Shown here: positions 8,910 to 54,262 of the stretch, piece after piece
How the letters are laid out: each line of letters opens with the position of its first letter
How positions within the stretch are numbered: the first letter of the stretch is position 1
Assembly (NCBI GenBank): GCA_031256175.1
Contig: JAIRRC010000012.1
Span: 914 to 64,913, forward strand
Origin: Rickettsiales bacterium
GTDB lineage: Bacteria > Pseudomonadota > Alphaproteobacteria > Rs-D84
Length of the DNA: 64,000 bases
Direction: 5' to 3'
The notes under the pieces: generated by a model
Told to the model about the DNA's origin: nothing
The model's database searches: none
What the model saw: only the letters and a program-made list of their open reading frames with translations
Program-made: the position numbers and the translations under genes

Positions 8910-10178
8910 TTGACGGCACAGATAGTTTCCGTTTCAAGAAAAAAATACGCGGTCGGGCTTTTCTGGCAGCCCGTCGCCGCCGCGCACGCCGCCAAGGGCG
9001 TCGCCGAAAGAATCTCGAAGTCCGCGCCCCAGGCGAGATTCAGATACTATGCGCAATACAGGAACCTTGTCGGCCTTGGCAGTCCCGCGCTTAAACATTA
9101 TTCGGGCCTGTCCGCGCTTGCGCCCGAAGTCATGGAATCCTTCGGCGACGCGCCTTCCTTCGCCGCGGTTTTCAAGGTCGGCGGCGGATACTGGATGATT
9201 GCCGTCAGGAACGGAATAATCCTGTCCGACCAGGACAGGTTGTTCGCGGTCGAAAAGGACGCGCGCGAGGCATTCGACAAACTATTGCAGCTTCCCGACT
9301 GGTCGCTTAAAGTCGCGCCGGAATCCTGGGGGATAACGGGCGCCCAGGAACGGAATATCGACGACGTCATATCGGGCAAAGTCCGAAGCGCGCTGCGTCC
9401 GATTGGCGAAACTTCCGGCCTTATGTTGAAGCTGCTTGTTTTCGGCGCCGCCGCGATAGCGCTTGTGTATTTTTTCGAGGCGGACATAAACAGGTTCCTT
9501 TCGCCCGGGCCCGCCGCGTCCCAAATGACCGAGGAATCCGCCCGCTTGTATAAAGAGCAATTGGCGCTTATGAAATCCGACCTGGCCGCGCCTGAAACTA
9601 TTGCGCCGGCGGGTCCCGTCATGCCGTGGGAAACTATTCCGCCGGCGAACGAAGTCGCCGCCCTTTGCACCAAGGCCATCGCCTTCATAATGCAGCCGGT
9701 CTATGGCTGGAACGTCGTTTCCGCCGACTGCGCCAATGGAAAAATCCACGCGGTAATCCGCCGCGACTACGGCACCATCCAGGAATTATACGAAGCGGTC
9801 GGCGGCCTTATGCCCGGCGTGGAAATCAAGACTTCGGGCGCGGGCGGAAGCGATGCGGAATTGTCGGGAACCTGGCCGCTGGCCGCCGCCGTCGCGAATG
9901 CCCCGGCTGAAAACATCGCCGCTGTCGAGCGCCGCGTCCGCAGCGTCTTTCAAATGGCGAACATGCCGGCCGCCATTTCCGTCGGCAAGGAAATCGTCGC
10001 GTCCCAAGGCGGCGATGTCAAAAGGACCGCGGAATATGTCCTTGTCCGCGCCGATTCCAAAATCATGCCGGAAGAATTCATGAAATTCCTTGAAATCCCG
10101 GCCGTCGAATTGCTGTCGGTTTCATGGGACATGGGAAAAAGCCAATGGAGCTATGAGGTGAGGGTGTATGCTTTGTAA
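8910..10178 (+). CDS. Pilus biogenesis protein, R64 PilO-like by position and size (single TM segment)
   Basis: Plausible TTG start at 8910 with RBS cagggggaa, directly after the secretin stop; the ORF track gives an ATG at 8826 that overlaps the secretin. One hydrophobic segment LMLKLLVFGAAAIALVYFF. Size and position match R64 PilO / ICE pilO. Confidence 0.4.
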   Translation: MTAQIVSVSRKKYAVGLFWQPVAAAHAAKGVAERISKSAPQARFRYYAQYRNLVGLGSPALKHYSGLSALAPEVMESFGDAPSFAAVFKVGGGYWMIAVRNGIILSDQDRLFAVEKDAREAFDKLLQLPDWSLKVAPESWGITGAQERNIDDVISGKVRSALRPIGETSGLMLKLLVFGAAAIALVYFFEADINRFLSPGPAASQMTEESARLYKEQLALMKSDLAAPETIAPAGPVMPWETIPPANEVAALCTKAIAFIMQPVYGWNVVSADCANGKIHAVIRRDYGTIQELYEAVGGLMPGVEIKTSGAGGSDAELSGTWPLAAAVANAPAENIAAVERRVRSVFQMANMPAAISVGKEIVASQGGDVKRTAEYVLVRADSKIMPEEFMKFLEIPAVELLSVSWDMGKSQWSYEVRVYAL

Positions 10179-10797
10179 GAAATATTTGATTGCCGCGCTG
10201 CTGTCCGCGCTTGCCGCGCCGGTCTTCGCGGACGATATAAACCTGGACGAATTCGACGCCGAAGGTTCGGTCTTCCTTCGCATAACCGCGCTGGAACAGG
10301 ACAAGGTCCTGATGAGGCTTGAAAAGGAGCGCGCGCAGCTTGCGCTCGACCTAAGCCGCATAGAGGCCGAAAAGTCGCGCCTTGCCGGAAGCGAAAGCGC
10401 GCCCGCGGGCGACGCCTCGGCCGAGCTTGCCGCCCAGTTCGACGAAGAGCGCAGGAAGATGAACGAGGAATTGGAGCGTTTCCGCCGCCAGCTCGACGAA
10501 GTCAAAACCGCGCCGCGCGAACCTGCCGATGCGCCCGCCCGCGCCGCCGATGTCGCCGCGGCTTCGGACGACGGCGAATTCGACATAGCCGACCATTACC
10601 GCCTTGTTCACATAACCGGGACCGAAGGCAATCTTAAAGCCATGGTCGAAATCGTCGCGAACGGCCACAGGCAGCGCGTCGGCGAAGGCCACGCATTCGA
10701 CGGATTCGTCGTGCAGGGAATTTCAAGCGGCGATGGCGTTCGGCTGGAGCGGGACGGCGAAGTCTTCCAGCTTCGCATGGTGAACGCCGCGAGATAA
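10168..10797 (+). CDS. Pilus biogenesis protein, PilP-like (signal peptide, coiled coil, C-terminal beta domain)
   Basis: Signal peptide MLCKKYLIAALLSALAAPVFA, a coiled-coil stretch, and a C-terminal HR-like beta domain YRLVHITGTEGNLKAMVEIVANGHRQRVGEGHAFDGFVVQGI. The start overlaps the previous gene by 11 nt. Confidence 0.4.
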   Translation: MLCKKYLIAALLSALAAPVFADDINLDEFDAEGSVFLRITALEQDKVLMRLEKERAQLALDLSRIEAEKSRLAGSESAPAGDASAELAAQFDEERRKMNEELERFRRQLDEVKTAPREPADAPARAADVAAASDDGEFDIADHYRLVHITGTEGNLKAMVEIVANGHRQRVGEGHAFDGFVVQGISSGDGVRLERDGEVFQLRMVNAAR

Positions 10798-10824
10798 AAT
10801 AACGCCATAAGTGGGAGAGAGCGA

Positions 10825-12450
10825 GTGGCAATATCGGCTAAGAACATCATAAGGGATATGAAGGAATCCGTGCCTGCGCGCATGGCGGATTCCGATTCGA
10901 AAAAAATCGTGGAATATCTTTTTTCCGAAGGCAACCAATTGCTGACGGGATTCCGCGGGCGGCTCGAACTGCCCAAAGACACCCAGAATTTGATAGCTTA
11001 TTTTTCCGGCGGCGAATTGATAATTTCGCGCACGCACAGATACGACGGCCGCGTGCTTGCCTTCGTTTCATTGGCCCAGCGCGAAAATCTTCCCCTTAAA
11101 GAGCCGTTTTACAGCGACATGGGCCTGCTGTCCGCCATATACAAGCAGGGCGAGGGCGCTTCGGGCGCCGCCGCGAAATCCCGCCTTGACTACGACAACC
11201 AGATGCAAAAGGACTTCGTCGACATAGTCGCCAAGGCCGCTAGCGCGAAAGTGTCCGACATACATATCGAAGTCGCGAACCATACGACCATATATTTCCG
11301 GAAAGACGGCGGAATGCAGACCATGCTTGAATACAGCGCCGCCTGGGGCGAAAGCTTCATCCGCGCGGCCTTCGCAAGCGCCGACATATCGAGCAGCAAC
11401 TATGCCAAGAACGAATACCAAAGCGCGCAAAAAGACGGCAGGACCCCGCTTCGCGGAACCAAGGATTTATATCTTCCCGCCGGGGTCCTCGGCATCCGCA
11501 TGCAGTTCAATCCAATCGCTTTCGGCTCGCGCTATGTGGTCATGCGCCTTCTTTACGAGAACCCGAGCGAAGGCATTCGGATAGAGCAGGAATTCACCGA
11601 TTTCGAGCAGCGCCTGTTGGCGCGCCTGCGTTCCTTCCCGACCGGCCTTGTGATAGTCGCGGGCCCGACGTCCAGCGGTAAATCGACCACGCTTTTCCAG
11701 AACATGACCATGATGCTGGGCGAGCGCGACTATGAAATAAACTTGATAACCGTCGAAGACCCGGCGGAAAGAAAAATCTTCGGCAGTCGCCAGATGCCGG
11801 TCGTGAACGCCACGACCGAGGAAGCCCGCGACGAAAAATTCACCGAAGCCTTGGCCGCCGCTTTGCGAAGCGACCCGGACGTCCTGATGGTCGGCGAAAT
11901 CCGCACGCTTAGCGCGGCCGAGCTTACCTTGAAGGGCGCGCTTTCGGGACATTCCGTCTGGACGACGCTTCATGCGAATTCCGCGATAGGCGCGCTTAAC
12001 CGCCTTATCGACATGGGCGTCGAGGCCTTCAAACTTAAAGACGAAACCATGATGCGCGGCCTTATGTCCATGCGCCTGTTCAAGCAGCTTTGCCCGCACT
12101 GCAAGGAACCATTGGCGCGTCATCCCGAGCTTGCCGTTCATGCGCGCGCCCTGGATTATTTCGGCGAAACCGGACTTGCGCAGATTTTCATCCGCGGCCA
12201 TGGGTGCGAGCAATGCGGCGGCAAGGGCACCATCGGCCGCGTCAAAGCGGGCGAAATCGTTCTGTGCGACGGAAAAATTTTAGAGCTTGTCGCCAAGGGA
12301 AGCAAACTGGAAGCCCAGGATTATTGGCTGAACGCTTTGGGCGGGCGCACGCTTAAAGAAGCCGCCGGCGAGCTTATGCTTAAAGGCCGCGTCGGCGCGG
12401 ACGAGCTTGAACGCTGGGTCGGCCTTATAGACCAGCCGGGGATTTACTGA
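10825..12450 (+). CDS. Type II/IV secretion-system ATPase (GspE/PilB/TcpT/R64 PilQ family)
   Basis: GTG start with RBS gggagagag. Walker A GPTSSGKST, Asp box, Walker B DPDVLMVGEIR, His box GHSVWTTLHANSA, and the tetracysteine motif CPHC...CEQC. Confidence 0.9.
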   Translation: MAISAKNIIRDMKESVPARMADSDSKKIVEYLFSEGNQLLTGFRGRLELPKDTQNLIAYFSGGELIISRTHRYDGRVLAFVSLAQRENLPLKEPFYSDMGLLSAIYKQGEGASGAAAKSRLDYDNQMQKDFVDIVAKAASAKVSDIHIEVANHTTIYFRKDGGMQTMLEYSAAWGESFIRAAFASADISSSNYAKNEYQSAQKDGRTPLRGTKDLYLPAGVLGIRMQFNPIAFGSRYVVMRLLYENPSEGIRIEQEFTDFEQRLLARLRSFPTGLVIVAGPTSSGKSTTLFQNMTMMLGERDYEINLITVEDPAERKIFGSRQMPVVNATTEEARDEKFTEALAAALRSDPDVLMVGEIRTLSAAELTLKGALSGHSVWTTLHANSAIGALNRLIDMGVEAFKLKDETMMRGLMSMRLFKQLCPHCKEPLARHPELAVHARALDYFGETGLAQIFIRGHGCEQCGGKGTIGRVKAGEIVLCDGKILELVAKGSKLEAQDYWLNALGGRTLKEAAGELMLKGRVGADELERWVGLIDQPGIY

Positions 12451-13523
12451 TGGCGACCAAGCTCGATATAATTTATTCGAAAATCATGTTCCGGTTCGAT
12501 ACGGCGAAGCGCCTTAACGCGTATCGGAAATTGTCGTCGCTGCTTCGGAACGATTTCACCTTGATTGAATCGTTGGACCGGCTTGTCGCGATAGAAAGCC
12601 GCGAGGGGAAAAAACCCAGCGAGCCCTTCGCCGTCGCTTACGCCGACTGGCAGGCCAAGCTGGAACGCGGATACACTTTTTCCGAAGCCATATCCGGCTG
12701 GGCGCCCGAGATAGAAGTCCTTATGCTTTCGGCGTCCGACATTTCGAAGCTTTGGGTCGCGCTTGAAAACGCCGTCAGGGTGGTCGAGGGCGGAAATAAA
12801 ATCAGCGGCGCGTTGGTGTCGGCGCTTTCCTATCCTTTGTTTTTGCTGGCCGCGACATTCGCGATAGTCGTCATGGTCGGGACGTATTTACTGCCGCCCA
12901 TGCTGGAAGCCGCGGGCAGGGACGTCATATGGCGCGGCGCCGCGCGCACCCTTGTAAGCGTGTCGGAATTCTTCGGCGCGAACTGGATTGTCATGGCGGG
13001 CGGGCTTGTCGGCGCCGCGGCATTGATTGCGTTTTCCATGCCGGTTATGCGCGGTCGCCTGCGGACCATGCTGGACAATATTCCGCCCTGGTCGCTTTAT
13101 AAGATTTCCGCAAGCGCCGGCTGGCTGGTGAGTCTTGCGTCGCTTATCAAGGCGGGCGCGACATTGCCCGAAGCGCTTAAAATGATGTCGCAGAATTCGA
13201 ACGGCTATCTGGCCGATGTGTCGGACAAGGCGCTTAACAATGTTATCGCCGGGCACAATCTCGGCGACGCTTTGGACGCCGCAGGTTTGCATTTCCCGAA
13301 CGATGAAATCATAGGCGATTTGAAAATCTATGCGGACATGGACGAATTCGACAAGAACCTTATGAATGTCGCGACTGAATACATGGATAATTCCGTCAAA
13401 AGCATAGAAACGACGGCGAACCTTTTGAATTCGATAGGCGTGCTTCTGATTTCGGTCGTCATAGCGTGGGTCGTCTTCGGCACCTTCGAAATGCAGGACC
13501 AAGTCGCCGCCGCTATCAGCTGA
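12450..13523 (+). CDS. Inner-membrane platform protein (GspF/PilC/TcpE/R64 PilR family)
   Basis: 357 aa with three hydrophobic segments in the GspF-like arrangement. The start overlaps the ATPase stop (TGATG). Confidence 0.7.
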   Translation: MATKLDIIYSKIMFRFDTAKRLNAYRKLSSLLRNDFTLIESLDRLVAIESREGKKPSEPFAVAYADWQAKLERGYTFSEAISGWAPEIEVLMLSASDISKLWVALENAVRVVEGGNKISGALVSALSYPLFLLAATFAIVVMVGTYLLPPMLEAAGRDVIWRGAARTLVSVSEFFGANWIVMAGGLVGAAALIAFSMPVMRGRLRTMLDNIPPWSLYKISASAGWLVSLASLIKAGATLPEALKMMSQNSNGYLADVSDKALNNVIAGHNLGDALDAAGLHFPNDEIIGDLKIYADMDEFDKNLMNVATEYMDNSVKSIETTANLLNSIGVLLISVVIAWVVFGTFEMQDQVAAAIS

Positions 13524-16047: not shown

Positions 16048-18030
16048 ATGTTTGAATTGAAATCCGCATTTTCACCGACGGGCGACCAGCCCGCAGCAAT
16101 CAAGGAATTGACAGACGGCCTGATAGCGGGCAAACGCGACCAGACGCTTCTTGGGGTTACGGGTTCGGGCAAGACCTTCACCATGGCGAATATAATCGCG
16201 AACCTTGACCGGCCGGCGCTTGTCATGGCGCCGAATAAAATCCTGGCCGCCCAGCTGTTCACCGAAATGAAATCGTTCTTTCCGAAGAACCATGTCGAAT
16301 ACTTCGTGTCCTATTACGATTACTACCAGCCCGAGGCATACGTCCCGACGACCGACACTTATATAGACAAGGACGCCGCGATAAATTCGGATTTGGAGCG
16401 CATGAGGCATTCCGCGACCCGCTCGCTTTTGGAATACCGCGATACGATTGTGGTTTCGTCGGTTTCGTCGATTTACGGCCTTGGCGACCCGGCCGAGTAT
16501 AAATCGATGTGCCGGACTTTTTCGGTCGGGCAGAAAATCGAAATGATGAAAATGCTGATGGAGCTTGTGGCGCTTCAATACAAAAGGAACGACATAGGCT
16601 TTTCCCGCGGCGACTTCATGGTTTCCGGCGACGCGGTCCAGATTTTTCCGCCCCATTCCGAAGACCGCTGCGTCCGCGTTTCATTCTTCGGCGACGAGAT
16701 AGAGGCCATCTATGAAATCGACGGCCTTACCGGAAAAACCATCGCCCAGGTCGGCCATATTTCCGTTTATCCGAACAGCCATTATGCGACGGAAAATTCC
16801 ATAATAACGAACGCTATAAAAAGCATCCGCGTCGAATTGGCCGACCGCCTTGCCTGGCTTGCGGAGAACAAAAAATTGCTGGAAGAACAGCGCCTTAAAG
16901 AGCGCACCAATTTCGATTTGGAAATGATGTCGGCGACGGGAACCTGCAAGGGGATAGAGAATTATTCGCGCTATCTTTCCGGCCGCGCGCCCGGCGAAGC
17001 GCCGCCTACGCTTTTCGAATATCTTCCCAAAGATTCGCTTCTGTTCATCGACGAATCGCACGTGTCGGTTCCGCAAATCGGCGCGATGTATAAGGGCGAC
17101 CGGTCGCGGAAGCAAACGCTTGTGGATTACGGCTTCCGTTTGCCCAGCGCGCTTGACAACCGCCCCATGAAGTTCGAGGAATGGGACGCCATAAGGCCGC
17201 AGACCATTTATGTATCCGCGACGCCGAACGATTATGAAATCGGATTGTCGAAAGGCGTCGTCGCCGAACAGGTAATCCGCCCGACCGGACTTCTCGACCC
17301 GGTGTGCGAAATAAGGCCGACCGCGTCCCAGGTGGACGACCTGCTTGGCGAATGCAAAAAAGTCGCGGCGAACGGGGGCAGGGTGCTGATTACCACCCTT
17401 ACCAAAAAGATGGCGGAACAGCTTACGGAATACCTTGCGGAAAACGGAATCCGCGCGCGCTATCTTCATTCGGACGTCGAAACATTGGAGCGCATAGAAT
17501 TGATTCGGCAGTTGCGCGCGGGCGATTACGACGTCTTGGTCGGAATCAATCTATTGCGCGAAGGGCTGGACATTCCCGAATGCGAGCTTGTCGCGATTAT
17601 GGACGCGGACAAGGAAGGGTTCTTGCGTTCGGCGCGCTCGCTGATTCAGACGATAGGCCGCGCGGCGCGGAACGCGGACGGCCGCGTGATTCTTTATGCC
17701 GATACCGAAACGCGAAGCATGAAGGATGCATTGGCGGAAACTTCGCGCCGGCGCGAAAAGCAGATGGCTTATAATAAGGCGAACAATATAACGCCGAAAA
17801 CCATAACCAAAACCATCTTCGATAAAATCGGCGAAGATTTGAAAGACCGCAAAAAGACCCGGTATATCTATACGCAAAAAGGCGCGCTTACGGCGGACGA
17901 CGTGAAGAAGGAAATCGCGGCGCTTGCGAAACAGATGAAGAAATTGGCCGAAGATTTGGAGTTCGAGCGCGCCGGACTAGTCCGCGACCGATTGAATTCT
18001 CTTAAAGAGGATTTATTGTATTTGGAATAA
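16048..18030 (+). CDS. uvrB: Excinuclease ABC subunit B
   Basis: 660 aa. Helicase Walker [10 protein letters not shown], the beta-hairpin region, and a C-terminal UVR coiled-coil domain. Confidence 0.95.
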
Positions 18031-18036
18031 TCCATT

Positions 18037-18062
18037 GTCATTCCGACCTTCGTCGGAATGAC
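18037..18062. repeat. Palindromic element GTCATTCCGAC-CTTC-GTCGGAATGAC (family copy)
   Basis: Perfect 11-bp inverted repeat. A 23-nt identical core recurs at 33459-33481, and related copies lie at 41613-41636 and 45123-45146. Confidence 0.75.
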
Positions 18063-18162
18063 TAGGGTGGTTTGTTAGGCGCAAGCGGCCGGGAATGGCG
18101 GACGAATTCATACCTATCGAAAAAAATTTCCTTGCATATATAATGCGGGCAGAGGTGATGCC

Positions 18163-32051: not shown

Positions 32052-32086
32052 AAAACTCCCCCCTTGCGGGAGAGTTGTTTTATTAC
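32052..32086. terminator. Bidirectional terminator hairpin of the AACTCCCCCC..GGGAGAGTT family
   Basis: A-run, aaactcccccc-ttgc-gggagagttg, T-run. It lies between convergent genes. Confidence 0.7.
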
Positions 32087-33366
32087 CAGCTTAAACTGCG
32101 TGTGGTCGATTGGGATTTCCTGTCGCCGAACATGTCGCGTTCGGTCTGTCTTAGAACTTTGAACTGGTCCGTCGATATGACGCGCAAGACGAACGAGCCG
32201 TCCGCCCTGTCGACCAGGACCGGTATGATGCGGCTTTCATGCACGCCCGAATCTATCAGCACCTGGTTGATTATCGCAAGGCGCCGCGCCGCCAGGCGTT
32301 TCGCCTCGGTGTTCGAAACCGCGTCTTCGGACACGGAAATTTGAATCGCGCGCTTCGGATTGTTCGCAATCATCGAGGCGTATTCGGACAGCAGATTGAA
32401 ATTGTCCTTGGTAAGCGCGCTGTCGTTGTCGGCGAAGCTCATCCTGATTTCGAGGGTTTTGGGCATGGATGCGTTCGCATTAATCGAATTGTCGCCGACG
32501 AATCCTTCCTGCGTTACGATTTCCCAATTGTCCGAGCTTAAAGAATCGAAATCTTCGTTCGAATATGCGGAAAGATGCTTGTTTTCCGATATGTAGGATT
32601 TATAGAACGCTTGTTTGAGTTCGCGCGGGGACAGCCTGTTCATCGGAACTTCGCCCGTGTCTTTCGGCGCGAATTCGTCGGTCGTGTTTCGCGCGATTAT
32701 GCGCGCCGGCCTGTCCGCCGGAGCATTTGCGAAGGCGGGCACCGGCTCTGGCGCGGCGACGGCGAATTGTTTATCATCTGACATACCGCGGCTTGACCGC
32801 GGTATCCCGGCATTGTTTATATTATTGGAAAATTTTTCCACGGCCGATTTCGCGCGGCTCGCTTTCTGCTGGCGGTTCTTTTGTTCAATCATGCGCGCGA
32901 TGGAATTGTCGATTTGCGCCTTGCGCTCCGCGTTCGATTGCTTGGGCGCTTGGCGGACCGGCTCGGGCGCGTATGCGATTTTGCTTTTATCTATGTATTC
33001 TTCCGGAAGCGAAAATTCTTCCGCGTCCAGCCGCACGATTTCACCCGCCCGCGGCATGCGGATTTTTTGTTCCGAATATGTTTCGGGTTTTTTGCCCGTA
33101 TTCGCCCAAAGCTCGGAATTCGGCCTGCGCGGCACAAGGACTTCGTTCGCGCCGCTATACTTGGGCGTGCTTGCGGGCTTGCCCGCCGAAGCCTTGGCGA
33201 AGGCGGGCGCGGGTTTCGCGAGAATGGTTTTTTGCGCGCCGAACAATTCCTTGGCCGACACGCTGCCGCGTTCGTATGAAACGCTTGGCAGCTGCGCCGC
33301 CGCGGCCGCATTGTGCGATATAAGCGCGGCAAGAACCGCGAAAATGCCGATTGAATTCCCCTTCAT
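32083..33366 (-). CDS. Secreted protein with a degenerate OmpA-like C-terminal domain
   Basis: Start trimmed to MKGNSIGIFAVLAALISHNAAAAA (signal peptide). The C-terminal AIQISVSE...EAKRLAARRLAIINQVLIDSGV..SRI follows the OmpA_C pattern but lacks GHTD. Confidence 0.4.
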   Translation of the reverse strand: MKGNSIGIFAVLAALISHNAAAAAQLPSVSYERGSVSAKELFGAQKTILAKPAPAFAKASAGKPASTPKYSGANEVLVPRRPNSELWANTGKKPETYSEQKIRMPRAGEIVRLDAEEFSLPEEYIDKSKIAYAPEPVRQAPKQSNAERKAQIDNSIARMIEQKNRQQKASRAKSAVEKFSNNINNAGIPRSSRGMSDDKQFAVAAPEPVPAFANAPADRPARIIARNTTDEFAPKDTGEVPMNRLSPRELKQAFYKSYISENKHLSAYSNEDFDSLSSDNWEIVTQEGFVGDNSINANASMPKTLEIRMSFADNDSALTKDNFNLLSEYASMIANNPKRAIQISVSEDAVSNTEAKRLAARRLAIINQVLIDSGVHESRIIPVLVDRADGSFVLRVISTDQFKVLRQTERDMFGDRKSQSTTRSLSW

Positions 33367-33455
33367 GCAAGGATTGTATCTTAAATCGGCCGGGCGGGTC
33401 AATGGCAAAATAGTTGCATTCGGGGCGCCGTCGGCGTATAATGAATATACGATTT

Positions 33456-33481
33456 GAGATTCCGACCTTCGTCGGAATGAC
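33456..33481. repeat. Palindromic element ..ATTCCGACCTTCGTCGGAATGAC (family copy)
   Basis: 23-nt identity with the 18037-18062 copy. Confidence 0.7.
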
Positions 33482-33490
33482 AAGGAAAAA

Positions 33491-41610: not shown

Positions 41611-41612
41611 TC

Positions 41613-41636
41613 GTCATGCTGGCGCAGGCCAGCATC
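41613..41636. repeat. Palindromic element GTCATGCTGGC-GCAG-GCCAGCATC (variant of the GTCATNCCGAC family with compensatory stem changes)
   Basis: Same outer GTCATGC..GCATC as the 45123 copy, with the inner stem exchanged (ctggc/gccag versus ccgac/gtcgg). Followed by a terminator hairpin and element C. Confidence 0.65.
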
Positions 41637-41648
41637 CAGTTATAGAGC

Positions 41649-41676
41649 GTCGGCCGGAAGGCCGACTTCTTTTTTA
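41649..41676 (+). terminator. Rho-independent terminator after the 542-aa gene
   Basis: gtcggcc-ggaa-ggccgac followed by TTCTTTTTT. Confidence 0.7.
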
Positions 41677-41681
41677 CTGGA

Positions 41682-41705
41682 CCCTGGCTTTCGCCAGGGT
41701 GACGG
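41682..41705. repeat. Palindromic element CCCTGGC-TTTC-GCCAGGGTGACG (element C)
   Basis: Second copy CCCTGAC-CTTA-GTCAGGGTGACG at 45192-45215, again with compensatory stem changes. Confidence 0.65.
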
Positions 41706-41789
41706 ATGGGGTGTCAAGCGCAATTTTTCCGCGCTTGCAATCCTGTTTTTCTATGCTATTATTCAATTCCAAGAAAGGAAAGAAACGAT

Positions 41790-42743
41790 ATGTCAAAAAT
41801 GCTAGTTTTTCCTGGCCAAGGCAGCCAGTTCGTCGGCATGGGTAAAGACCTTGCCGATAAATTCGACGTCGCCAAAAACGTCTTCGCCGAAGTCGACGAC
41901 GCGCTGGGCCAGGACCTGTCCAAGATAATGTTCGACGGAAGCATGGAAGAACTTACCCTTACCGCCAATTCCCAGCCAGCAATCATGGCCGTGTCCATCG
42001 CCGTCCTTAAAGTTTGGATGAACCTTTCGGGCCGCACCATCCGCGACGCTTTCGCTTATGTCGCGGGGCATTCGCTCGGCGAATACACGGCGCTTTGCGC
42101 CGCGGGCTCGTTGTCCCTTCATGACACCGCGAAATTATTGCGCCTGCGCGGCGAAGCCATGCAGCGCGCCGTGCCCGTCGGCCAGGGCGCTATGGCGGTT
42201 CTGCTCGGACTCGACATAGAATCGGTTCAGAAAATCTGCCGCGCTTCGTCCGATTTGGATTTTGGCGTTTGCGATTTGGCGAACGACAATGCGCCCGGCC
42301 AGGTCGTGGTTAGCGGTTCCAAGCCCGCCGTCGACAAAGCCATCGAGCTTGCCAAAGAAGCGGGCGCCAAGCGCGCCATGCTGTTGCCGCTTTCGGTGCC
42401 GCCGCATTCGTCGCTTATGGAGAACGCGCGCATGGAGATGGAAGCCGCGCTTGCCGACATAGTTCTTGTGCCGCCGATTGTCCCGATGATTTCCAACCGC
42501 ACCGCCCAGCCCGTTTTCAATTCGGAAGAAATCAAAAATCTTCTGGTGCAGCAGATGGTGAAGGGCGTTCGCTGGCGCGAAACTATTTTGAACGCGGCCG
42601 AGCTCGGCGTCGACGAAGTCGTCGAATTCGGTCCGGGCAAAGTCCTGACCGGACTTGCGCCGCGCATATCCGAAGGCATGAAGGCCGAAGCTGTCGGCAC
42701 GCCCGATGACATCAAGAATTTCATAGGAGAACAGAATGTTTGA
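41790..42743 (+). CDS. fabD: Malonyl CoA-ACP transacylase
   Basis: Start at MSKMLVFPGQGSQ with RBS aaggaaagaaacg. Active-site GHSLGEYTAL. Confidence 0.9.
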   Translation: MSKMLVFPGQGSQFVGMGKDLADKFDVAKNVFAEVDDALGQDLSKIMFDGSMEELTLTANSQPAIMAVSIAVLKVWMNLSGRTIRDAFAYVAGHSLGEYTALCAAGSLSLHDTAKLLRLRGEAMQRAVPVGQGAMAVLLGLDIESVQKICRASSDLDFGVCDLANDNAPGQVVVSGSKPAVDKAIELAKEAGAKRAMLLPLSVPPHSSLMENARMEMEAALADIVLVPPIVPMISNRTAQPVFNSEEIKNLLVQQMVKGVRWRETILNAAELGVDEVVEFGPGKVLTGLAPRISEGMKAEAVGTPDDIKNFIGEQNV

Positions 42744-43473
42744 TTTGACTGGAAAAGTCGCGCTTATAACGGGCGCCACAGGTGGAATCGGCGAAGGCAT
42801 AGCGCGCGCTATGCACGCGGCCGGCGCGGCCGTCGTCTTGACCGGGCGGAAACTCGACAAGTTGGAATCGCTTAAAGCGGAGCTCGGCGACCGCGCGTTT
42901 TTAATCGCGGCCGACTTGTCGGACGCGGCCGCCGCTGAAAAGCTTGTCGCCGATTCGATTGCCGCCGCGGGCCGCCTTGATATTCTTGTGAACAATGCGG
43001 GCATGACAAAGGACGGCCTGATGATGCGCATGAAGGACGAAGATTTCTTCGAAGTCCTTAATGTGAACCTTGGCTCCGCCTTTCGTCTTTCGAAGGCCGC
43101 GGTTTCGCCGATGATGAAGAACCGCTTCGGCCGAATCATCAATATAACTTCCGTCGTCGGCACCATGGGCAACGCCGGTCAGGCGAATTACGCCGCGTCG
43201 AAGGGCGCCATAACCGCTATGACAAAATCCGTCGCGACGGAAGTCGCCAGCCGCGGCATAACCGCGAACTGCATAGCGCCGGGCTTCATAAAAACCGCTA
43301 TGACGGATGTCTTGTCGGACGATATAAAAAATCTTATGTTGAAACAGATTCCGGCCGGCAGATTCGGCGAACCCGCCGATATAGCCGCCGCCGCCGTGTT
43401 TTTGGCGTCGGGCGAAGCGTCCTATATCACGGGCCAAACCATCCATGTCAACGGCGGAATGCTGAGGGTTTAA
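42736..43473 (+). CDS. fabG: 3-oxoacyl-ACP reductase
   Basis: SDR motif TGATGGIG plus the YxxxK catalytic pair. 245 aa, overlapping fabD by 8 nt. Confidence 0.9.
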   Translation: MFDLTGKVALITGATGGIGEGIARAMHAAGAAVVLTGRKLDKLESLKAELGDRAFLIAADLSDAAAAEKLVADSIAAAGRLDILVNNAGMTKDGLMMRMKDEDFFEVLNVNLGSAFRLSKAAVSPMMKNRFGRIINITSVVGTMGNAGQANYAASKGAITAMTKSVATEVASRGITANCIAPGFIKTAMTDVLSDDIKNLMLKQIPAGRFGEPADIAAAAVFLASGEASYITGQTIHVNGGMLRV

Positions 43474-43474
43474 T

Positions 43475-43819
43475 ATGATGAAAAAACTTCTGATATTTTC
43501 TTTTATTGCGGCTTTCGCGTTCGGCGCTTCGGCCGAAGAATGCAACGAAACCAACTGCTACGCCGACGTTTCCGAATCCGGAATCAATCCGGCGCAAGTC
43601 AGAAGGATTCCCGGCAGCATGCCGCCCGAATGCGAAGTCGACGCCGGCATCGCCAATATGTATGGCGTCATCGACCGGAATTTTTCCGGCGAGGAAAGGG
43701 ACTTCGAAATCGCGGTTTTCAAGAGCGAGCTTAGAAGCATATGCTGCCCGGACCATTCGGACGAGAATATAATTCTGCTGTTCGAAGGCGTGGACAACCG
43801 CGTCCAATGCGCGGAGTAA
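43475..43819 (+). CDS. Small secreted cysteine-rich protein, unknown function
   Basis: Signal peptide MMKKLLIFSFIAAFAFGASA and seven Cys residues. It occupies the slot where acpP usually follows fabG. Confidence 0.4.
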   Translation: MMKKLLIFSFIAAFAFGASAEECNETNCYADVSESGINPAQVRRIPGSMPPECEVDAGIANMYGVIDRNFSGEERDFEIAVFKSELRSICCPDHSDENIILLFEGVDNRVQCAE

Positions 43820-43873
43820 TCCCGGTTTATTTATCCTTGCAATCTGGCTCTGCGCGGTTATAATTCATGCACT

Positions 43874-43960
43874 GCGGATATGGCGGAACTGGTAGACGCG
43901 CTAGTTTCAGGTACTAGTGAACGCAAGTTCATGGAGGTTCGAGTCCTCTTATCCGCACCA
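43874..43960 (+). tRNA. tRNA-Leu (anticodon CAG), class II with a long variable arm
   Basis: Hand-folded cloverleaf: acceptor GCGGATA/TATCCGC, anticodon stem CTAGT/ACTAG with loop TTCAGGT, long variable arm, T-loop GTTCGAGT, 3' CCA encoded. Confidence 0.85.
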
Positions 43961-43978
43961 TTTTTGTCTGTTTTTACT

Positions 43979-44053
43979 GGCCCCATCGTCTAGCGGTTAG
44001 GACGCAAGATTCTCATTCTTGAAACCCGGGTTCGATTCCCGGTGGGGTCGCCA
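43979..44053 (+). tRNA. tRNA-Glu (anticodon CTC)
   Basis: Acceptor GGCCCCA/TGGGGTC (one G-U pair), anticodon stem CAAGA/TCTTG with loop TTCTCAT, T-arm CCGGGTTCGATTCCCGG, CCA encoded. Confidence 0.8.
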
Positions 44054-44060
44054 AAAAATC

Positions 44061-44090
44061 AAATCGCGCGAAAGCGCGGTTTTATTTTTT
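44061..44090 (+). terminator. Terminator after tRNA-Glu
   Basis: aaatcgcgcg-aaa-gcgcggttt hairpin followed by ATTTTTT. Confidence 0.65.
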
Positions 44091-44191
44091 GCCCCCGGGA
44101 AGCGAACCCGGAGGGTTCGACAATGAGTCAGCGAAAACGAGCTTGCGAAGTTTGAGCTGGGACGATTGCCGCGCAGGTGCGAAGCACCGAG

Positions 44192-44216
44192 CGAATCCCG
44201 GTGGGGTCGCCAAAAA
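44192..44216. repeat. Direct repeat of the tRNA-Glu 3' end (25/26 nt: CGAATCCCGGTGGGGTCGCCAAAAA), att-like scar
   Basis: Near-identical to 44033-44058 inside tRNA-Glu, about 135 nt downstream. No cloverleaf upstream of it, so it is not a second tRNA. Confidence 0.7.
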
Positions 44217-44480
44217 TCACTTCTTCTTGTTTTTATCTTCGTCGTTGACCAGTGAAAAAAGCGTTGCGGTTATAAGCGTCTGATACGGGACGCCTTTCGC
44301 CGCCGCAAGCTGTTTCAGCTTGTCGGCGACCGCGCCCGGTATCCGCATATTGATTACCGAATCGCTTTTGTTGAACGCGCGGTAGACGGCGTAGTCCTTC
44401 AAAATATCGTCGCTGTTCATCAGGAAAAGTTGTTGGAGCATATTCGGCATGACCCATGTTTTATACAACAAGTTTTCCAA
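44217..44480 (-). CDS. Ribbon-helix-helix (CopG/antitoxin-like) DNA-binding protein
   Basis: C-terminal INMRIPGAVADKLKQLAAAKGVPYQTLI matches the RHH beta-alpha-alpha pattern. Palindromes sit in its promoter region. Note: my hand indexing around 44455-44462 did not reproduce the tracked frame exactly, so the start codon is uncertain. Confidence 0.45.
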   Translation of the reverse strand: MENLLYKTWVMPNMLQQLFLMNSDDILKDYAVYRAFNKSDSVINMRIPGAVADKLKQLAAAKGVPYQTLITATLFSLVNDEDKNKKK

Positions 44481-44486
44481 ATGTCA

Positions 44487-44515
44487 ATAGATTTATCTAT
44501 ACAAATGTATATACA
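44487..44515. promoter_or_regulatory. Candidate operator: two palindromes ATAGAT-TT-ATCTAT and TGTATATACA in the divergent RHH / DUF2147 intergenic region
   Basis: Perfect inverted repeats in an AT-rich 97-nt intergenic region immediately upstream of the RHH gene start. Confidence 0.35.
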
Positions 44516-44577
44516 ATGAATTTCTGGATTTCCCGCGGCTTTCGGGTATTATTGCCCTAACAAAAAAGGAGTATGTC

Positions 44578-45117
44578 ATGCAGAAGATTTTAACCGCCGC
44601 TTTCGCGGTTTTTATGGCGACCAACGCTTTCGCTACGACCGAACCGGCCGATGTGAAATTCCCTGTGAAGGGATTTTGGAAAACGATAGACGACAAGACG
44701 GGCAATGCGAAATCCATCGTGCGCTTGTATGATTGCGGAGAAAATCTTTGCGGCCGCATAGTCGCGATTTTCAATGTCGAGGGAACCGCCGTCGCCGAAA
44801 CATTGTCCGCGCCGGTGAAGGTCGCCGAAGACGTGAAGGGCAAGCCCAAAATGGTCGGCCTTGATATAATCTGGGACATGGAATGGAACGGAACCGAATG
44901 GAAGGGCGGAAAAATCCTGGACCCGAAATCGGGCAGCGTTTATTCGTCCGTCATTTGGCAGACCAAGGAAGACGTCGACTTCAACCAGCTTCAAGTCCGC
45001 GGGAAAATCGGCCCATTCGGCCGCACCCAGATGTGGAACGCGATGGAAGTGAAGGAACTTCCGAAAGATTTGCAAAAAATCGACGTGTCCGTTTGGACGC
45101 CGGTTATTGTGAAATAA
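44578..45117 (+). CDS. Secreted DUF2147-family protein
   Basis: Signal peptide, then GFWKTIDDKTGNAKSIVRLYDCGENLCGRIVAI matching the DUF2147 signature (GxWxxxDDKTGxxKSxVxIYxxxxxLxGKIV). Confidence 0.6.
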   Translation: MQKILTAAFAVFMATNAFATTEPADVKFPVKGFWKTIDDKTGNAKSIVRLYDCGENLCGRIVAIFNVEGTAVAETLSAPVKVAEDVKGKPKMVGLDIIWDMEWNGTEWKGGKILDPKSGSVYSSVIWQTKEDVDFNQLQVRGKIGPFGRTQMWNAMEVKELPKDLQKIDVSVWTPVIVK

Positions 45118-45122
45118 AAATT

Positions 45123-45146
45123 GTCATGCCGACGGAGGTCGGCATC
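45123..45146. repeat. Palindromic element GTCATGCCGAC-GGAG-GTCGGCATC (family copy)
   Basis: 10-bp stem. Followed by a 45-nt AT-rich palindrome (TCAAATTGT...ACAATTTGA) and element C. Confidence 0.7.
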
Positions 45147-45191
45147 TCAAATTGTAAATATCCTTATAATAATGAATTATACAATTTGAGA

Positions 45192-45215
45192 CCCTGACCT
45201 TAGTCAGGGTGACGA
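45192..45215. repeat. Palindromic element CCCTGAC-CTTA-GTCAGGGTGACG (element C copy)
   Basis: See 41682-41705. Confidence 0.65.
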
Positions 45216-45221
45216 ATTAAA

Positions 45222-45812
45222 TTATATCGGTTTGCTGATGAATTTATTTCCCTTTATGACGAACCGCCAGGGAAGCGCGGCGTCTTTGCCCGCATAATCG
45301 ACGCCGATTCTTTTTCCGCTGGCCGCCGGAAATTTTTTCGGCGACGCTTCCAGCCAAATCACAGCGCCTTCCAAATCTTCGCCGTTGTGCTTCCGCGTTA
45401 TCCCAAGCGCTTGCGTCAGTTTCGCCGGCCCGTTGCAAAGGTTTTTTTCGTCCCGGATTTTTCTGCGCGCCTTCATCGTTTCCAATCCGTCAATCGGTTC
45501 CAAAGCGCGAATCAATATCGCGTTCGCTTCGCCGGCTTTGCTTATCACGACATTCATCATATGGTGCATTCCATAGACGAAATAGACGTATGCGAATCCG
45601 CCCGGGCCGAACATGACCGCGTTGCGCGGAGTTTTCCCGCGCCATGCATGGCAGGCCTTGTCGCCGCGTCCCGTATATAGTTCCAATTCCACTATGCGCC
45701 CGCTGGTCGGTTTTCCGCCGATGTTCGAATGCAATGTCGCGCCCAGCAAATTTTTCGCTACATGAAACGGGTCCTTCAAAAATTCGGATTTTTTTATTTT
45801 CATTTTTCCCAT
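45222..45812 (-). CDS. mpg: DNA-3-methyladenine glycosylase, Mpg/AAG family
   Basis: HVAKNLLGATL...RIVELELYTG...GGFAYVYFVYGMHHMMNVV is the AAG-family core. Start taken at MGKMKIKK. Confidence 0.8.
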   Translation of the reverse strand: MGKMKIKKSEFLKDPFHVAKNLLGATLHSNIGGKPTSGRIVELELYTGRGDKACHAWRGKTPRNAVMFGPGGFAYVYFVYGMHHMMNVVISKAGEANAILIRALEPIDGLETMKARRKIRDEKNLCNGPAKLTQALGITRKHNGEDLEGAVIWLEASPKKFPAASGKRIGVDYAGKDAALPWRFVIKGNKFISKPI

Positions 45813-45856
45813 GGGTCCCCGCAAACCCGCCCGGAACGGGTTGGGTTTGTGGGGCG
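45811..45856. repeat. 45-nt palindromic element CCCCGCAAACCC-GCCCGGAACGGG-TTGGGTTTGTGGGG (copy 2 of 2)
   Basis: Homologous to 6378-6422 with paired compensatory substitutions (T.A to C.G, A.T to C.G, one G.T wobble). It abuts the mpg start on the minus strand. Confidence 0.7.
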
Positions 45857-51192: not shown

Positions 51193-51771
51193 ATGTATCA
51201 GCTAATCGCGTTGTTGTTCGGCTATTTATTGGGCGGCGTTCCGTTCGGCTATATAATAGTGAAGGCGTCCGGCATGGGCGACGTCAGAAAAATCGGAAGC
51301 AAAAGCACCGGCGCGACGAACGTTTTGCGGACGGGGAAAAAATGGCTGGCGGCTTTGACATTGGCGCTCGATTTCTTGAAGGCTGCTGCGGCCTATTGGA
51401 TTGCCGAATGGATTGTGCCTGGCGCGGGAATTCTGGCGGGCGCCGCCGCGGTCGTCGGGCATTGCTTTCCGGTATGGCTGAAATTCAAAGGCGGCAAGGG
51501 CTTCGCGTCCACGCTTGGATTCTTGTTCGCGGTGTCGCCGCTGCTTTGGCTGATATGCTCCGCGATTTGGCTGATAGTGGCCTTTGCGACGAAAATATCG
51601 TCGGTCGCGGCGCTGTTCGTCTTGGCCGCGGCGCCCAGCGTCGCCTGGTTTCTGGGCCAGGGCTGGGCGGTAGTCTTCGCGATTGCGTTCCTGTCGTTGC
51701 TTGGCATAATAAGGCACCGCGAGAATATAAAGCGCCTGGCGTCCGGCACCGAATCGAAAATCAAATTATGA
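51193..51771 (+). CDS. plsY: Glycerol-3-phosphate acyltransferase PlsY
   Basis: GSKSTGATNVLRTGKKW motif and five TM segments. 192 aa. Confidence 0.9.
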   Translation: MYQLIALLFGYLLGGVPFGYIIVKASGMGDVRKIGSKSTGATNVLRTGKKWLAALTLALDFLKAAAAYWIAEWIVPGAGILAGAAAVVGHCFPVWLKFKGGKGFASTLGFLFAVSPLLWLICSAIWLIVAFATKISSVAALFVLAAAPSVAWFLGQGWAVVFAIAFLSLLGIIRHRENIKRLASGTESKIKL

Positions 51772-52814
51772 TGGGCGATATTTTCCACCGCCTTTGCATA
51801 TATAGGTCGCCGGGAATAGGGGCCGTGAAATTTTCCGCTATTATGGCGAAATACGGCGACGCGGAAGCGGCCGCGGCCAGTTTGGATTTATCGGACTCTT
51901 TCAAGGATTCCGTGAAGCGCGAAATGGATTCGCTGCGCGCGCTGGGCGGATTTTATATTTCGGACGCGGACGATGATTTTCCAAAAAATTTGAAGCACGC
52001 TTACGGCTGCGCGCCGATACTGAGCGTGCTCGGCAACCGCGCGGCGCTGGATAAGAAATCGGTTTCGGTCGTCGGCACGCGGCACGCTTCCGCCGCGGGC
52101 ATGGATATAATCCGGGACATTGCGAAGCGCCTTGCCGAAAACGATGTCGCCGTTGTGTCGGGCATGGCGATGGGAACGGACGCGGCGGCGCACGAAGGCG
52201 CGCTGCGCGCGGACGGCGACGCGAATACGATTGCGGTCCTGGCGGGCGGCGTCGATTATGTATGGCCTTTGGAGAATCGGAAATTGTATGACGATATTGT
52301 CCGGCGCGGCGCGGTGGTATCCGAAATGCCGGTCGGCTTCAAGCCGACTGCGACGCACTTCGCGCAGCGGAACAGGATAGTCGCGGCGCTTGGCGAAAAA
52401 TTGGTGCTGGGCGAATCGAACGAAGGAAGCGGCAGTCTGATTACCGCGAATTTCGCGAAGGATTTCGGACGCAGGATTTTCGCATTGCCCGGACATCCCG
52501 CCGACCCGCGCGCGCACGGCCCGAACAGATTGATTCGTGAAGGCGCGGCGACCTTGTGCATGGGCGCGGACGATTTCTTTCCGAAATTGGAGTTTGGTGG
52601 TAGTATTGACAATACAAAAAAGGCGGTTTTGCGCGCCGAATCGGCGCTTGGGAATAGGATTTTAGACCTTATGGCCGCATCACCCTCGTCCGAATCGGTT
52701 ATCGCGTCCGCCCTTGGCGAAAATATAGCGATAATCAAGAAGGAACTCGTGCTCCTCGAAATATCCGGCCGCGTCGAAAAGGCGAACGGCGGCTTCATTC
52801 GGAAATCATTTTAA
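51768..52814 (+). CDS. dprA: DNA processing protein DprA (Smf)
   Basis: Start at MMGDIFHRL overlapping the plsY stop (ATGA). Rossmann-like DprA core VVGTRHASAAGMDI...VVSGMAMGTDAAAHEGAL. Confidence 0.85.
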   Translation: MMGDIFHRLCIYRSPGIGAVKFSAIMAKYGDAEAAAASLDLSDSFKDSVKREMDSLRALGGFYISDADDDFPKNLKHAYGCAPILSVLGNRAALDKKSVSVVGTRHASAAGMDIIRDIAKRLAENDVAVVSGMAMGTDAAAHEGALRADGDANTIAVLAGGVDYVWPLENRKLYDDIVRRGAVVSEMPVGFKPTATHFAQRNRIVAALGEKLVLGESNEGSGSLITANFAKDFGRRIFALPGHPADPRAHGPNRLIREGAATLCMGADDFFPKLEFGGSIDNTKKAVLRAESALGNRILDLMAASPSSESVIASALGENIAIIKKELVLLEISGRVEKANGGFIRKSF

Positions 52815-52969
52815 CCCCGTTTTTTGGCGGTTTTCAAGGCATTTCCCGCGAATCCGAAAAATCCGCAGAAATCCGTTCAAGCGAAAATTTTTTCCATTTT
52901 TCAAATTAAATTATGGCAAATTCCCCGTCCCCCCTTAAAGTGTCTTATACGAAGGAAGGAAAATCGCAA

Positions 52970-54262
52970 ATGTCCGCTGTTGAACAACCCAAAAATTTGT
53001 TCGAAGACTTTATGGGCTCGGTCGCCGACGCCGTGCGTCCCGCGGAATTCAACACATGGTTTTCCAAAGTGTCGGGCAGCGCCGACGGCGGCAAAATAAT
53101 TTTGCGCGCGCCCAGCGACTTCGTCGCGGGCTGCATAAAGAACAGATACAAATCCGCGTTGGAATTGCTCGCGGCCGAAATGAAGCTTGGCCTTGAAATA
53201 GGCAGCCGCATGAATTCCGCCGCGGCCGAGGCCGCGAATATCAATGACAACAAACCCGCCGTCGCATCCGCGCCCGCGCCGCGCCCGGAAACCGATTCAT
53301 ATTCCTTCGAAAATTTCATAACAAGCGCGGAAAACGAATTCGTCGTCGCGGCTTGCAAAAAACTTTCGGCCGCGAATGTCGGGTTTTCGCCGCTGTTTTT
53401 ATACGGCGCCAGCGGCTGCGGTAAAACGCACTTGGCGCGCGCGGTCAGGAATGAAATCGTCCTTGGCGGCGACCGGAGCGTCGTCATGCTTTCGGGCGAC
53501 AGGTTCGTGTCCGACTTCGTGCGGTCGCTCAAAAACCAGACCAACTTCGCCTTCAAGGATAAAATCGCGTCGGCTGACGTCCTTATAATAGACGGCGTGG
53601 AAAGCTTGATTGGAAAATCCGCGACGCTCGCCGAATTTGAATCGCTTCTGGTTTCCGTAATCGAAAACGGCGGGAATGTGGTGCTGACGGCGTCCCAGGC
53701 GCCGGGCGCGCTTTCGGGAATTTCGCGCCGCTTGCAGTCTTTATTGTCGTCCGGCGTGGTCGCCGATGTCGCGTCGCCGAACGCCGCGGCGAAAATGCGG
53801 ATTCTGAAGACCGCGGGCGCGACCGATGAAGTCGCCCGGTTCGTCGCGGAGAATTCCGCCTGCGACGGGCATGTTGTCGCGGGACTGGCGAAAAAAATAT
53901 CGGTCTGGTGCGAAACCTTCGGAATGAAGATGACCTTGGATGAATCGCGCCGCGTCTTGGGCGATTCGCTTAATGGGAAAAAATCGCCGGAAGATTTCGT
54001 GAAGAAGATGTGCGCGGCGCTTGCGGTGTCGTTCGATGAAATAATGTCCGCGCGGCGCCAGGCGAAAATCGTGCGCGCGCGTCAGATGATGATGCACGTG
54101 CTGAAATCGGAAACGAATATGTCGTTGTCCGAAATCGGCCGCGCGCTTGGCGGCAAGGACCACGCCACGATTATTTATGGAATCAATAATATCGAAAAAC
54201 AGAAACTATCCGACCTTACATTAACGGCGGAATTGGAAACATTGCGCGCCGCGATGAATTAG
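52970..54262 (+). CDS. dnaA: Chromosomal replication initiator DnaA
   Basis: AAA+ Walker A GASGCGKTHL, Walker B DVLIIDGVESL, and the domain IV DNA-binding helix (MSLSEIGRALGGKDHATIIYGINNIEK). Start chosen at MSAVEQ with a strong RBS gaaggaagga; the tracked ORF begins 57 nt upstream at 52913. Confidence 0.9.
   Translation: MSAVEQPKNLFEDFMGSVADAVRPAEFNTWFSKVSGSADGGKIILRAPSDFVAGCIKNRYKSALELLAAEMKLGLEIGSRMNSAAAEAANINDNKPAVASAPAPRPETDSYSFENFITSAENEFVVAACKKLSAANVGFSPLFLYGASGCGKTHLARAVRNEIVLGGDRSVVMLSGDRFVSDFVRSLKNQTNFAFKDKIASADVLIIDGVESLIGKSATLAEFESLLVSVIENGGNVVLTASQAPGALSGISRRLQSLLSSGVVADVASPNAAAKMRILKTAGATDEVARFVAENSACDGHVVAGLAKKISVWCETFGMKMTLDESRRVLGDSLNGKKSPEDFVKKMCAALAVSFDEIMSARRQAKIVRARQMMMHVLKSETNMSLSEIGRALGGKDHATIIYGINNIEKQKLSDLTLTAELETLRAAMN

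Follow-up and report, generated by a model that had tools for sequence, protein, structure and literature searches.

Repetitive extragenic palindromic (REP) sequences that carry a CGTC tag were described as family CGTC-1 by Di Nocera, De Gregorio & Rocco (2013, BMC Genomics 14:522; PMC3733652), and here we compare with that family a set of short hairpin units found in 64,000 nucleotides of a Rickettsiales bacterium (contig JAIRRC010000012.1, positions 914 to 64,913; hereafter the window, meaning the whole stretch analysed). The CGTC-1 unit has an 8-bp stem, a 4-nt loop and mostly a CCA tail, with a tag that reads CGTC, but also TGTC or CCTC, and a stem that 'almost invariably' opens with complementary A and T in positions one and two. 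Sub-families are distinguished by complementary changes in the stem. Units occur mostly as HH dimers, in which the tags lie outside and the spacers, of 20-100 bp, often have complementary ends, and copies are extragenic, near the 3' ends of open reading frames (ORFs), mostly between unidirectional or convergent ORFs. The hosts are mainly alphaproteobacterial, with tens to thousands of copies per genome, and the family is the same as the Neisseria dRS3 and the Rickettsia conorii RPE-6 repeats (PMC3733652).

Repeats named NTS or SRM (Ssn-related motif) were described, together with their enzymes, by Chenal et al. (2025, Nat Commun 16:2388; PMC11893778), who give the NTS consensus as CGTCATTCCCGCGMAVGCGGGAATCYRG. 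The Ssn enzymes are small single-domain GIY-YIG nucleases (cd10448) that bind a hairpin in single-stranded DNA (ssDNA) and cut just upstream of it; in vitro tests cover four of them, one being the Wolbachia pipientis enzyme and the other three coming from Neisseria species (PMC11893778). Neisseria meningitidis SsnA, with conserved residues Y6/Y17/E64, is the only one mapped by mutation: it acts on ssDNA only, neither binding nor cutting RNA or double-stranded DNA, its binding needs a C after the palindrome, and its cleavage needs the three preceding bases (GTC) (PMC11893778). The ssn genes are usually flanked by NTS-type repeats, like a small mobile element, Ssn cutting in N. meningitidis lowers the integration of repeat-bearing transforming DNA, and symbionts such as Rickettsia and Wolbachia are over-represented among SRM-rich genomes (PMC11893778).

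Two further repeat systems are useful for comparison. One is that of the GTAG-tagged REPs, BIMEs and REPINs with their RAYT in Escherichia coli and Pseudomonas, where the GTAG REPs form REPINs copied by RAYT and GTAG is the tag that RAYT cleaves. These are, like the CGTC/NTS repeats, short tagged hairpins, mostly extragenic and often in inverted pairs, that fold into larger hairpins and have an enzyme of their own, which recognises them as ssDNA and the gene of which they flank. They differ in the tag (GTAG versus CGTC in the window), in the stem and loop formats, and in the enzyme, a Y1/HUH transposase versus a GIY-YIG nuclease for the CGTC/NTS family; no RAYT was found near the units described here. 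The other system is that of the Neisseria intergenic mosaic elements (NIMEs), arrays in which dRS3-type units alternate with short spacers.

The window contains six hairpin units at four intergenic loci (Table 1), about one unit per 10 kb, arranged as two singletons and two tags-outside ('HH') heterodimers. All six share one layout, with a (C/T)GTC tag, a perfect 8-bp stem with A as its first base and T as its last, a short tail, and a G-rich loop of 4 nt that reads GAAG, GCAG, GGAG, GAAA or TAAG on the unit's own strand. The tag is CGTC at 41612, 41704 (minus) and 45214 (minus) and TGTC at 18036, 33482 (minus) and 45122, and the minus-strand reading of the 18037 palindrome carries AGTC. When both strands of the window were scanned for GTCA plus a perfect 8-bp stem and a loop of 4-5 nt, seven matches were obtained, whereas 200 dinucleotide shuffles averaged 0.02 and never exceeded 1; the seven are the six units, since the 18037 palindrome is counted on both strands. 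These units probably belong to the CGTC-1 (NTS/SRM) family and would act as recognition hairpins of an Ssn-type enzyme.

Table 1. Coordinates of the repeat units and of their spacers within the window.
Feature	Position	Strand	Sequence and remarks
Palindromic singleton unit	18036..18063	both strands	tGTC-ATTCCGAC-cttc-GTCGGAAT-GACt; tag on each strand
Complete singleton unit	33451..33482	-	TGTC ATTCCGAC GAAG GTCGGAAT, tail CTCAAATC
Left unit, first dimer	41612..41635	+	CGTC ATGCTGGC GCAG GCCAGCAT, tail CCAGT
Spacer, first dimer, 45 nt	41636..41680	.	tails CCAGT and ACTGG pair, enclosing a terminator-like hairpin
Terminator-like hairpin	41649-41666	+	GTCGGCCGGAAGGCCGAC then TTCTTTTTT, inside the first-dimer spacer
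Right inverted unit, first dimer	41681..41704	-	CGTC ACCCTGGC GAAA GCCAGGGT, tail CCAGT
Left unit, second dimer	45122..45145	+	TGTC ATGCCGAC GGAG GTCGGCAT, tail CTCAAATTGTA
Spacer, second dimer, 45 nt, AT-rich	45146..45190	.	end tails CTCAAATTGTA and TACAATTTGAG pair over ~11-12 bp
Right inverted unit, second dimer	45191..45214	-	CGTC ACCCTGAC TAAG GTCAGGGT, tail CTCAAATTGTA

The palindromes had been flagged by an original prediction made from the window alone, and they are real: they are further copies of an already described repeat family, with minor variants (AC-starting stems, CTC tails). Every sequence quoted in that prediction lies where it had been placed. Its pattern for a first type of element (A), GTCATNCCGAC-N4-GTCGGNATGAC, holds literally only for the copy at 18037-18062 and matches nowhere else, although the four copies proposed (at 18037, 33459, 41613 and 45123) are all recovered by the looser GTCATKC-N3-C-N4-G-N3-GMAT, which gives six matches on the two strands, including one at 4109 with 1 mismatch, versus 0.38 expected in shuffles. 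The 4109 near-match is no unit, having a 6-bp stem and a 3-nt loop and lying inside a long ORF. The pattern given for a second type (C) matches 41682-41704 and 45192-45214, with 0 expected. A and C are nevertheless not separate element types, because an A-type unit, read as its reverse complement, gives C (CGTC-ACCCTGRC-N4-GYCAGGGT-C), and there is therefore one unit type rather than two. The copy at 33459 is not truncated but a complete minus-strand unit, and its place is between divergent genes rather than behind a stop codon. The compensated exchange of stem bases was read correctly, both between ATGCTGGC/GCCAGCAT and ATGCCGAC/GTCGGCAT and between ACCCTGGC/GCCAGGGT and ACCCTGAC/GTCAGGGT, and this one genome holds four different stems, all perfectly compensated, together with two tail sub-families. 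So were the dimer centres, a terminator-like hairpin in the 41613 element and a 45-nt AT-rich palindrome in that at 45123; the 'central palindrome' of these compound elements is mostly the two unit tails pairing. Of the two explanations that had been offered, the right one is a mobile repeat resembling REPs or miniature inverted-repeat transposable elements, and the units fit the CGTC-1 family.

This fit extends to most of the traits by which CGTC-1 was defined. The window units likewise have a CGTC or TGTC tag that is unpaired within the unit, an 8-bp stem, a 4-nt loop and a short tail; HH dimers, heterodimers and complementary-ended spacers are common to both, with the 45-nt spacers of the window falling within the 20-100 bp of the family. 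The copies are also extragenic and near ORF ends, with two loci between unidirectional genes, one between convergent and one between divergent genes, and sub-families with complementary stem changes occur in both. A difference from the published description is the singleton that forms a perfect palindrome, tagged on each strand. In the same way, the layout of the NTS consensus CGTCATTCCCGCGMAVGCGGGAATCYRG is that of window positions 41612-41639, CGTCATGCTGGCGCAGGCCAGCATCCAG; GTC precedes the palindrome in all six units, C follows it in 5/6 (the exception being 18037, with G), and the 4-nt G-rich loop is common to the window units and NTS. The host, known from a metagenome-assembled genome, is a member of the Rickettsiales, which are among the SRM-rich symbionts. 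CGTC-type REPs being already known in many bacteria, the finding is an ordinary one, and a Rickettsiales host falls in an expected clade, since Rickettsiales are rich in CGTC-1/SRM repeats.

Several observations weigh against assigning the units to an Ssn-recognised family. The published SRM pattern, HGTCWYN(0-2)YYVSBRHN(0-5)WNVSBRGN(0-2)RNCYNB (PMC11893778), matches 2/6 window units, both in the 41612-41704 dimer, with a shuffle mean of 0.27, and the other 4/6 fail one S position of the pattern (CCGAC and CTGAC stems). Units of the CCGAC type, though failing the pattern, flank ssn genes in five distant genomes. The stem begins with AT in 4/6 window units and with AC rather than AT in 2/6 (ACCCTGGC and ACCCTGAC), and a CCA tail is found in just 2/6, with the CTC(AAATTGTA) tail in 3/6 and GAC in the palindromic singleton. 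In that singleton, G takes the place of C next to the palindrome whichever strand is read, so that the singleton lacks the 3' C required for binding by the N. meningitidis enzyme. Unlike the typical repeat-flanked arrangement, there is no ssn gene in the 64-kb window, nor in ~130 kb from the same sample (L122) and the relatives L123-L130, as searched with a hidden Markov model (HMM) built from the five Ssn-like proteins described below; the same-sample contigs L001 and L122 add ~300 nt to the window itself. Finally, cleavage has been shown with Neisseria and Wolbachia enzymes, the spread of repeats by Ssn is a published hypothesis and not a demonstrated mechanism, and a rival proposal for the copies in Neisseria is a RAYT transposase (bioRxiv 10.1101/2021.07.10.451892).

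The unit is widespread in other genomes. A scan for GTCATKCCGACNNNNGTCGGMAT in 185,579 genomes, one per bacterial or archaeal species, found the unit at at least 120 loci across many phyla, in hosts that include Acetobacteraceae, Methylotenera, Neisseria, Ignavibacteria, Syntrophobacterales, Treponema, Dehalococcoidia and candidate phyla radiation bacteria, among others. We matched 155 units, 152 in the fetched loci (cited here by L numbers) and 3 in the window, and as three were cut by a locus end, 152 could be scored. Of these 152, 88 are tags-outside dimers, whose spacers have a median length of 36 nt, and 12 resemble the 18037 copy in being palindromic singletons. CCA tails are present in 64/88 dimers (CCAC 37, CCAG 21, CCAT 6), with CTAT, CTCC and CTCA also occurring, AC-starting partner stems exist in other genomes (for example ACCCCGGG in L013), and the CTCAAATTGTA tail of the second dimer is also found on units in L073, L127 and L131-L136.

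Among the at least 120 loci with the unit we identified five Ssn-like single-domain GIY-YIG ORFs of ~90-110 aa (L006, L012, L020, L030 and L055), and the three tested matched Pfam GIY-YIG (PF01541) with E-values of 1e-14 to 1e-17. Units lie no more than 150 nt from the Ssn-like gene in all five loci, and on both sides of it, in dimer arrays, in four of them. When the 3,645 ORFs of the unit-centred loci were clustered and ubiquitous superfamilies (ABC transporters, SDR, response regulators, histidine kinases) were set aside, the GIY-YIG Ssn-like proteins were the only recurrent small non-ubiquitous family. The Ssn-like protein of L030 (Neisseria) has, as we count them, conserved Y, Y and E three positions offset from Y6/Y17/E64 of SsnA. 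In L030 (200-1280) and L006 (3400-4240), the Ssn-like gene has on both sides tags-outside dimers in tandem arrays that repeat every ~105-114 nt; the arrangement in these two metagenome-assembled genomes, from Neisseria and Ignavibacteria, is, as judged from their sequence, the published NTS-ssn-NTS layout in two very distant phyla. The arrays of these two loci resemble NIMEs, whereas the window has no arrays, just singletons and single dimers. In L012, the stretch 4521-4580 ahead of the Ssn-like gene is an extension of the ORF in which a unit is translated (…VIPAQAGIQ…), and such repeats can therefore create spurious N-terminal extensions in gene calls.

Comparison with relatives of the host points to turnover of the copies. 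The unit downstream of uvrB is absent from L123 (90% UvrB identity) and L125 (86%), with gene order kept; after the uvrB stop codon there is a plain terminator in L123 and no hairpin in L125. The absence of the 18037 copy from these close relatives is consistent with mobility. In L127 (83% UvrB identity), a tags-outside dimer from the CTCAAATTG-tail sub-family, again with a different stem, is found elsewhere in the locus, at 4793-4920, and the left unit of this dimer, TGTC ATTCCCGC ... GCGGGAAT CTCAGATTGTA, has a 39-nt loop insertion containing a small hairpin of its own, which looks like a nested insertion into the loop of the unit. The site orthologous to the 41613 dimer in L129 (FabD 71% identical), upstream of fabD at 5697-5770, is occupied by a singleton of another kind, TGTC ATTGTCAGG cttga CCTGACGAC, which has one wobble pair, a loop of 5 nt and the tail CCAGG and is followed by a GC-rich terminator-like hairpin; this site could be either a hot spot or the place of an old unit that has diverged. 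A metagenome scan for units with the CTCAAATTGTA tail led to six termite-gut loci (L131-L136), in which ATGCCTGC is paired with ATTCCGGC or ATTCCCGC in compact heterodimers whose 25-nt spacer is just the two CTCAARTTGTA tails. These dimers may be a 'minimal' form of the 45122-45214 sub-family. The HMM built from the five Ssn-like proteins found no ssn gene in these six loci. On reading the flanks of the two window dimers, no target-site duplications were seen. Together, the compensated stems and the copy absent from its site in relatives are consistent with recent mobility and with constraint at the level of the hairpin.

Under the Ssn-linked reading that we prefer, the units would be recognition hairpins at the level of ssDNA for an Ssn-type enzyme whose gene would lie outside the window in this Rickettsiales genome or would have been lost from it. 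The compensated stem differences could then represent sub-families kept as hairpins by Ssn recognition and by the mode of spread, and a tags-outside dimer would present one cleavable orientation on each strand. Copies near gene ends may act secondarily as terminators or as hairpins at mRNA 3' ends.

An unlikely alternative is that the tags-outside dimers are REPINs, non-autonomous elements copied by a single-copy tyrosine (HUH/Y1) transposase of the RAYT type. For Bertels and Rainey, the dRS3/CGTC-1 unit of Neisseria, which they write ATTCCCGCGCAGGCGGGAATC, makes up a REPIN population linked to the Group 2 RAYT NMAA_0235, and they report REPIN decay where this RAYT is frameshifted (bioRxiv 10.1101/2021.07.10.451892); the inverted-pair architecture of the dimers is, in addition, a defining trait of REPINs. 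Against this, the tag is CGTC and not GTAG, and in none of the CGTC-positive species did Di Nocera et al. find CGTC units on the flanks of a tyrosine transposase gene, nor did they find any dedicated transposase for CGTC-1 (PMC3733652). Our own search by motif regular expression and phmmer found no RAYT-like ORF in the window and fetched loci (~1.08 Mb), where five ssn genes are present, although this test, with an E. coli YafM query, is low-powered and a RAYT may lie elsewhere in the genome. The original prediction had named a known REP family with an associated RAYT transposase as the outcome that would count against it, and this largely applies: the family is indeed a known one, the enzyme associated with it is Ssn, and a RAYT is what has been proposed for Neisseria.

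The dimers can further be considered from their predicted folds and their position. Because the two units are inverted, their tags (GTC/GAC) and tails pair with each other, and the dimer therefore folds, on paper, as a four-way junction or cruciform, predicted to have no unpaired junction bases. For the 45123 dimer, the four-way junction is predicted under both RNA and DNA parameters; for that at 41613, it is predicted under DNA parameters, whereas RNA parameters give one long extended hairpin, because both units share the CTGGC core. High stability is predicted for these folds, the z-scores being about -7 to -9 overall and -7.5 to -9.2 for the dimers. Conservation of the hairpins speaks for the Ssn-linked reading: covariation was counted on 54 dimers anchored on the unit boundaries and scored against the four-helix structure, in which 91% of cells are paired, versus 80% in shuffles, and 17/28 pairs change on both sides. 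None of 500 shuffles reached the observed pairing and covariation values, and pairing falls to 24-46% when the 3' partners are slid by 1-3 columns. Helix 4, the stem of the partner unit, is 98% paired and has six covarying positions, while the complementarity of helices 1 and 3 follows from inverted duplication and is thus no independent sign of selection.

As to position, all but one of the four loci begin 1-7 nt away from a stop codon. The 18037 unit begins 5 nt after that of uvrB (18028-18030), between unidirectional genes; the 41613 dimer, also between unidirectional genes, lies upstream of fabD and begins 1 nt past a stop codon, that of a 542-aa gene; and the 45123 dimer fills the gap between two convergent genes, its 45122 unit starting 4 nt past the stop codon of a DUF2147 gene and its 45191..45214 unit ending 7 nt from that of a methylpurine-DNA glycosylase gene (45222-45824, minus). 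The fourth unit, at 33459, lies between divergent genes, an OmpA-like gene (minus, start near 33366) and an acyl-ACP thioesterase gene (plus, start 33491), and its hairpin ends 5 nt ahead of the thioesterase ribosome-binding site. We rejected the view of this unit as following the stop codon of a 280-aa plus-strand ORF (32615-33457), since that ORF is antisense to the OmpA-like ORF 32083-33366 (minus) and is probably spurious. The plus-strand ORF has no Pfam match, and in the minus-strand ORF the N-terminus resembles a signal peptide (MKGNSIGIFAVLAALISHNAAAAAQ) and the C-terminus matches the OmpA family weakly; the latter ORF is probably the real gene at that locus. A promoter-like TTGCAT-17 nt-TATAAT is present at 33414-33442, just upstream of the 33459 unit; transcription starting from it would place the hairpin in the 5' untranslated region (UTR) of the thioesterase transcript.

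The dimers, whose predicted folds leave no junction base unpaired, are found within 1-7 nt of stop codons; one of them encloses a gene's intrinsic terminator, and the other stands between convergent genes. They might have been co-opted in this lineage as a gene-end device, as bidirectional terminators or 3'-end protectors that persist without Ssn or RAYT; or else the dimer, and not the single unit, might be what an Ssn-type GIY-YIG nuclease copies, as a 'REPIN' with a non-transposase enzyme. We regard this pair of ideas as improbable.

It is improbable, too, that the elements are primarily RNA under selection at the transcript level, whether as structured 3'-UTR elements, which was the second explanation of the original prediction, or as bidirectional terminators or mRNA-stabilising hairpins. 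The stop-codon proximity and the stability of the folds just described would suit this role, as would the canonical terminator inside the 41613 dimer and the terminator-like score on the minus strand of the 45126-45145 hairpin with the following GACAATTTTT, and many REPs have been argued to be transcribed (PMC3733652). Against a primary RNA role speak the occurrence of units in both orientations and, at one locus, between divergent genes, as well as the inability of the Neisseria SsnA to bind or cut RNA (PMC11893778). G-T wobbles are rare in the 54 dimers and no commoner than other mismatches in helices 2 and 4, the unit recurs in unrelated contexts across phyla, and the uvrB copy is dispensable in close relatives. 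No Rfam family matches either: only tRNAs reach the gathering score in the window, and a scan by E-value over the elements gave MIR8675 and SmY matches far below their gathering scores. A secondary RNA-level effect of the units, such as termination or 3'-end protection, may exist alongside. That the palindromes are chance ones or ordinary independent terminators, unrelated to each other, is hardly credible, for although hairpins abound in intergenic regions and the window has many other, unrelated ones of 7-11 bp, the six units share tag, stem length, loop length and loop type, far exceed shuffled expectation in the structural scan, and have identical counterparts at more than 100 loci of other genomes, so that this view is already refuted.

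Taken alone, the units of the window are of little significance, extending a repeat family to one more uncultured Rickettsiales genome. For the way in which CGTC/NTS repeats multiply, the literature has Ssn, RAYT or neither as candidates. To this the window brings the small additions of four compensated stems, two tail sub-families, a dimer wrapped around a terminator and a copy absent in relatives. A text search of the literature for the unit strings returned chance primer matches only.

Some features of the surrounding sequence are also worth recording. The region 43874-44091, on the downstream side of fabD and fabG, contains two tRNA genes, of 84 nt and 72 nt, with a bidirectional terminator-like hairpin after them at 44061-44082, and the expected acpP ORF (43506-43772) has no Pfam match. 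A dprA gene (Pfam E-value 1.8e-60) is located directly upstream of dnaA, in window 51342-54262. Upstream of asmA and uvrB, two of the relatives carry a cluster of TcpQ, secretin, PilO, T2SSE and T2SSF genes (L123 134-7251, L125 267-7069), and the window has at ~7300-13500 ORFs of matching size and order, which by synteny probably form the same pilus/secretion cluster. Together, dprA and the pilus/secretion genes near uvrB hint at an organism that may take up DNA, and such uptake is the process modulated by Ssn and NTS in Neisseria.

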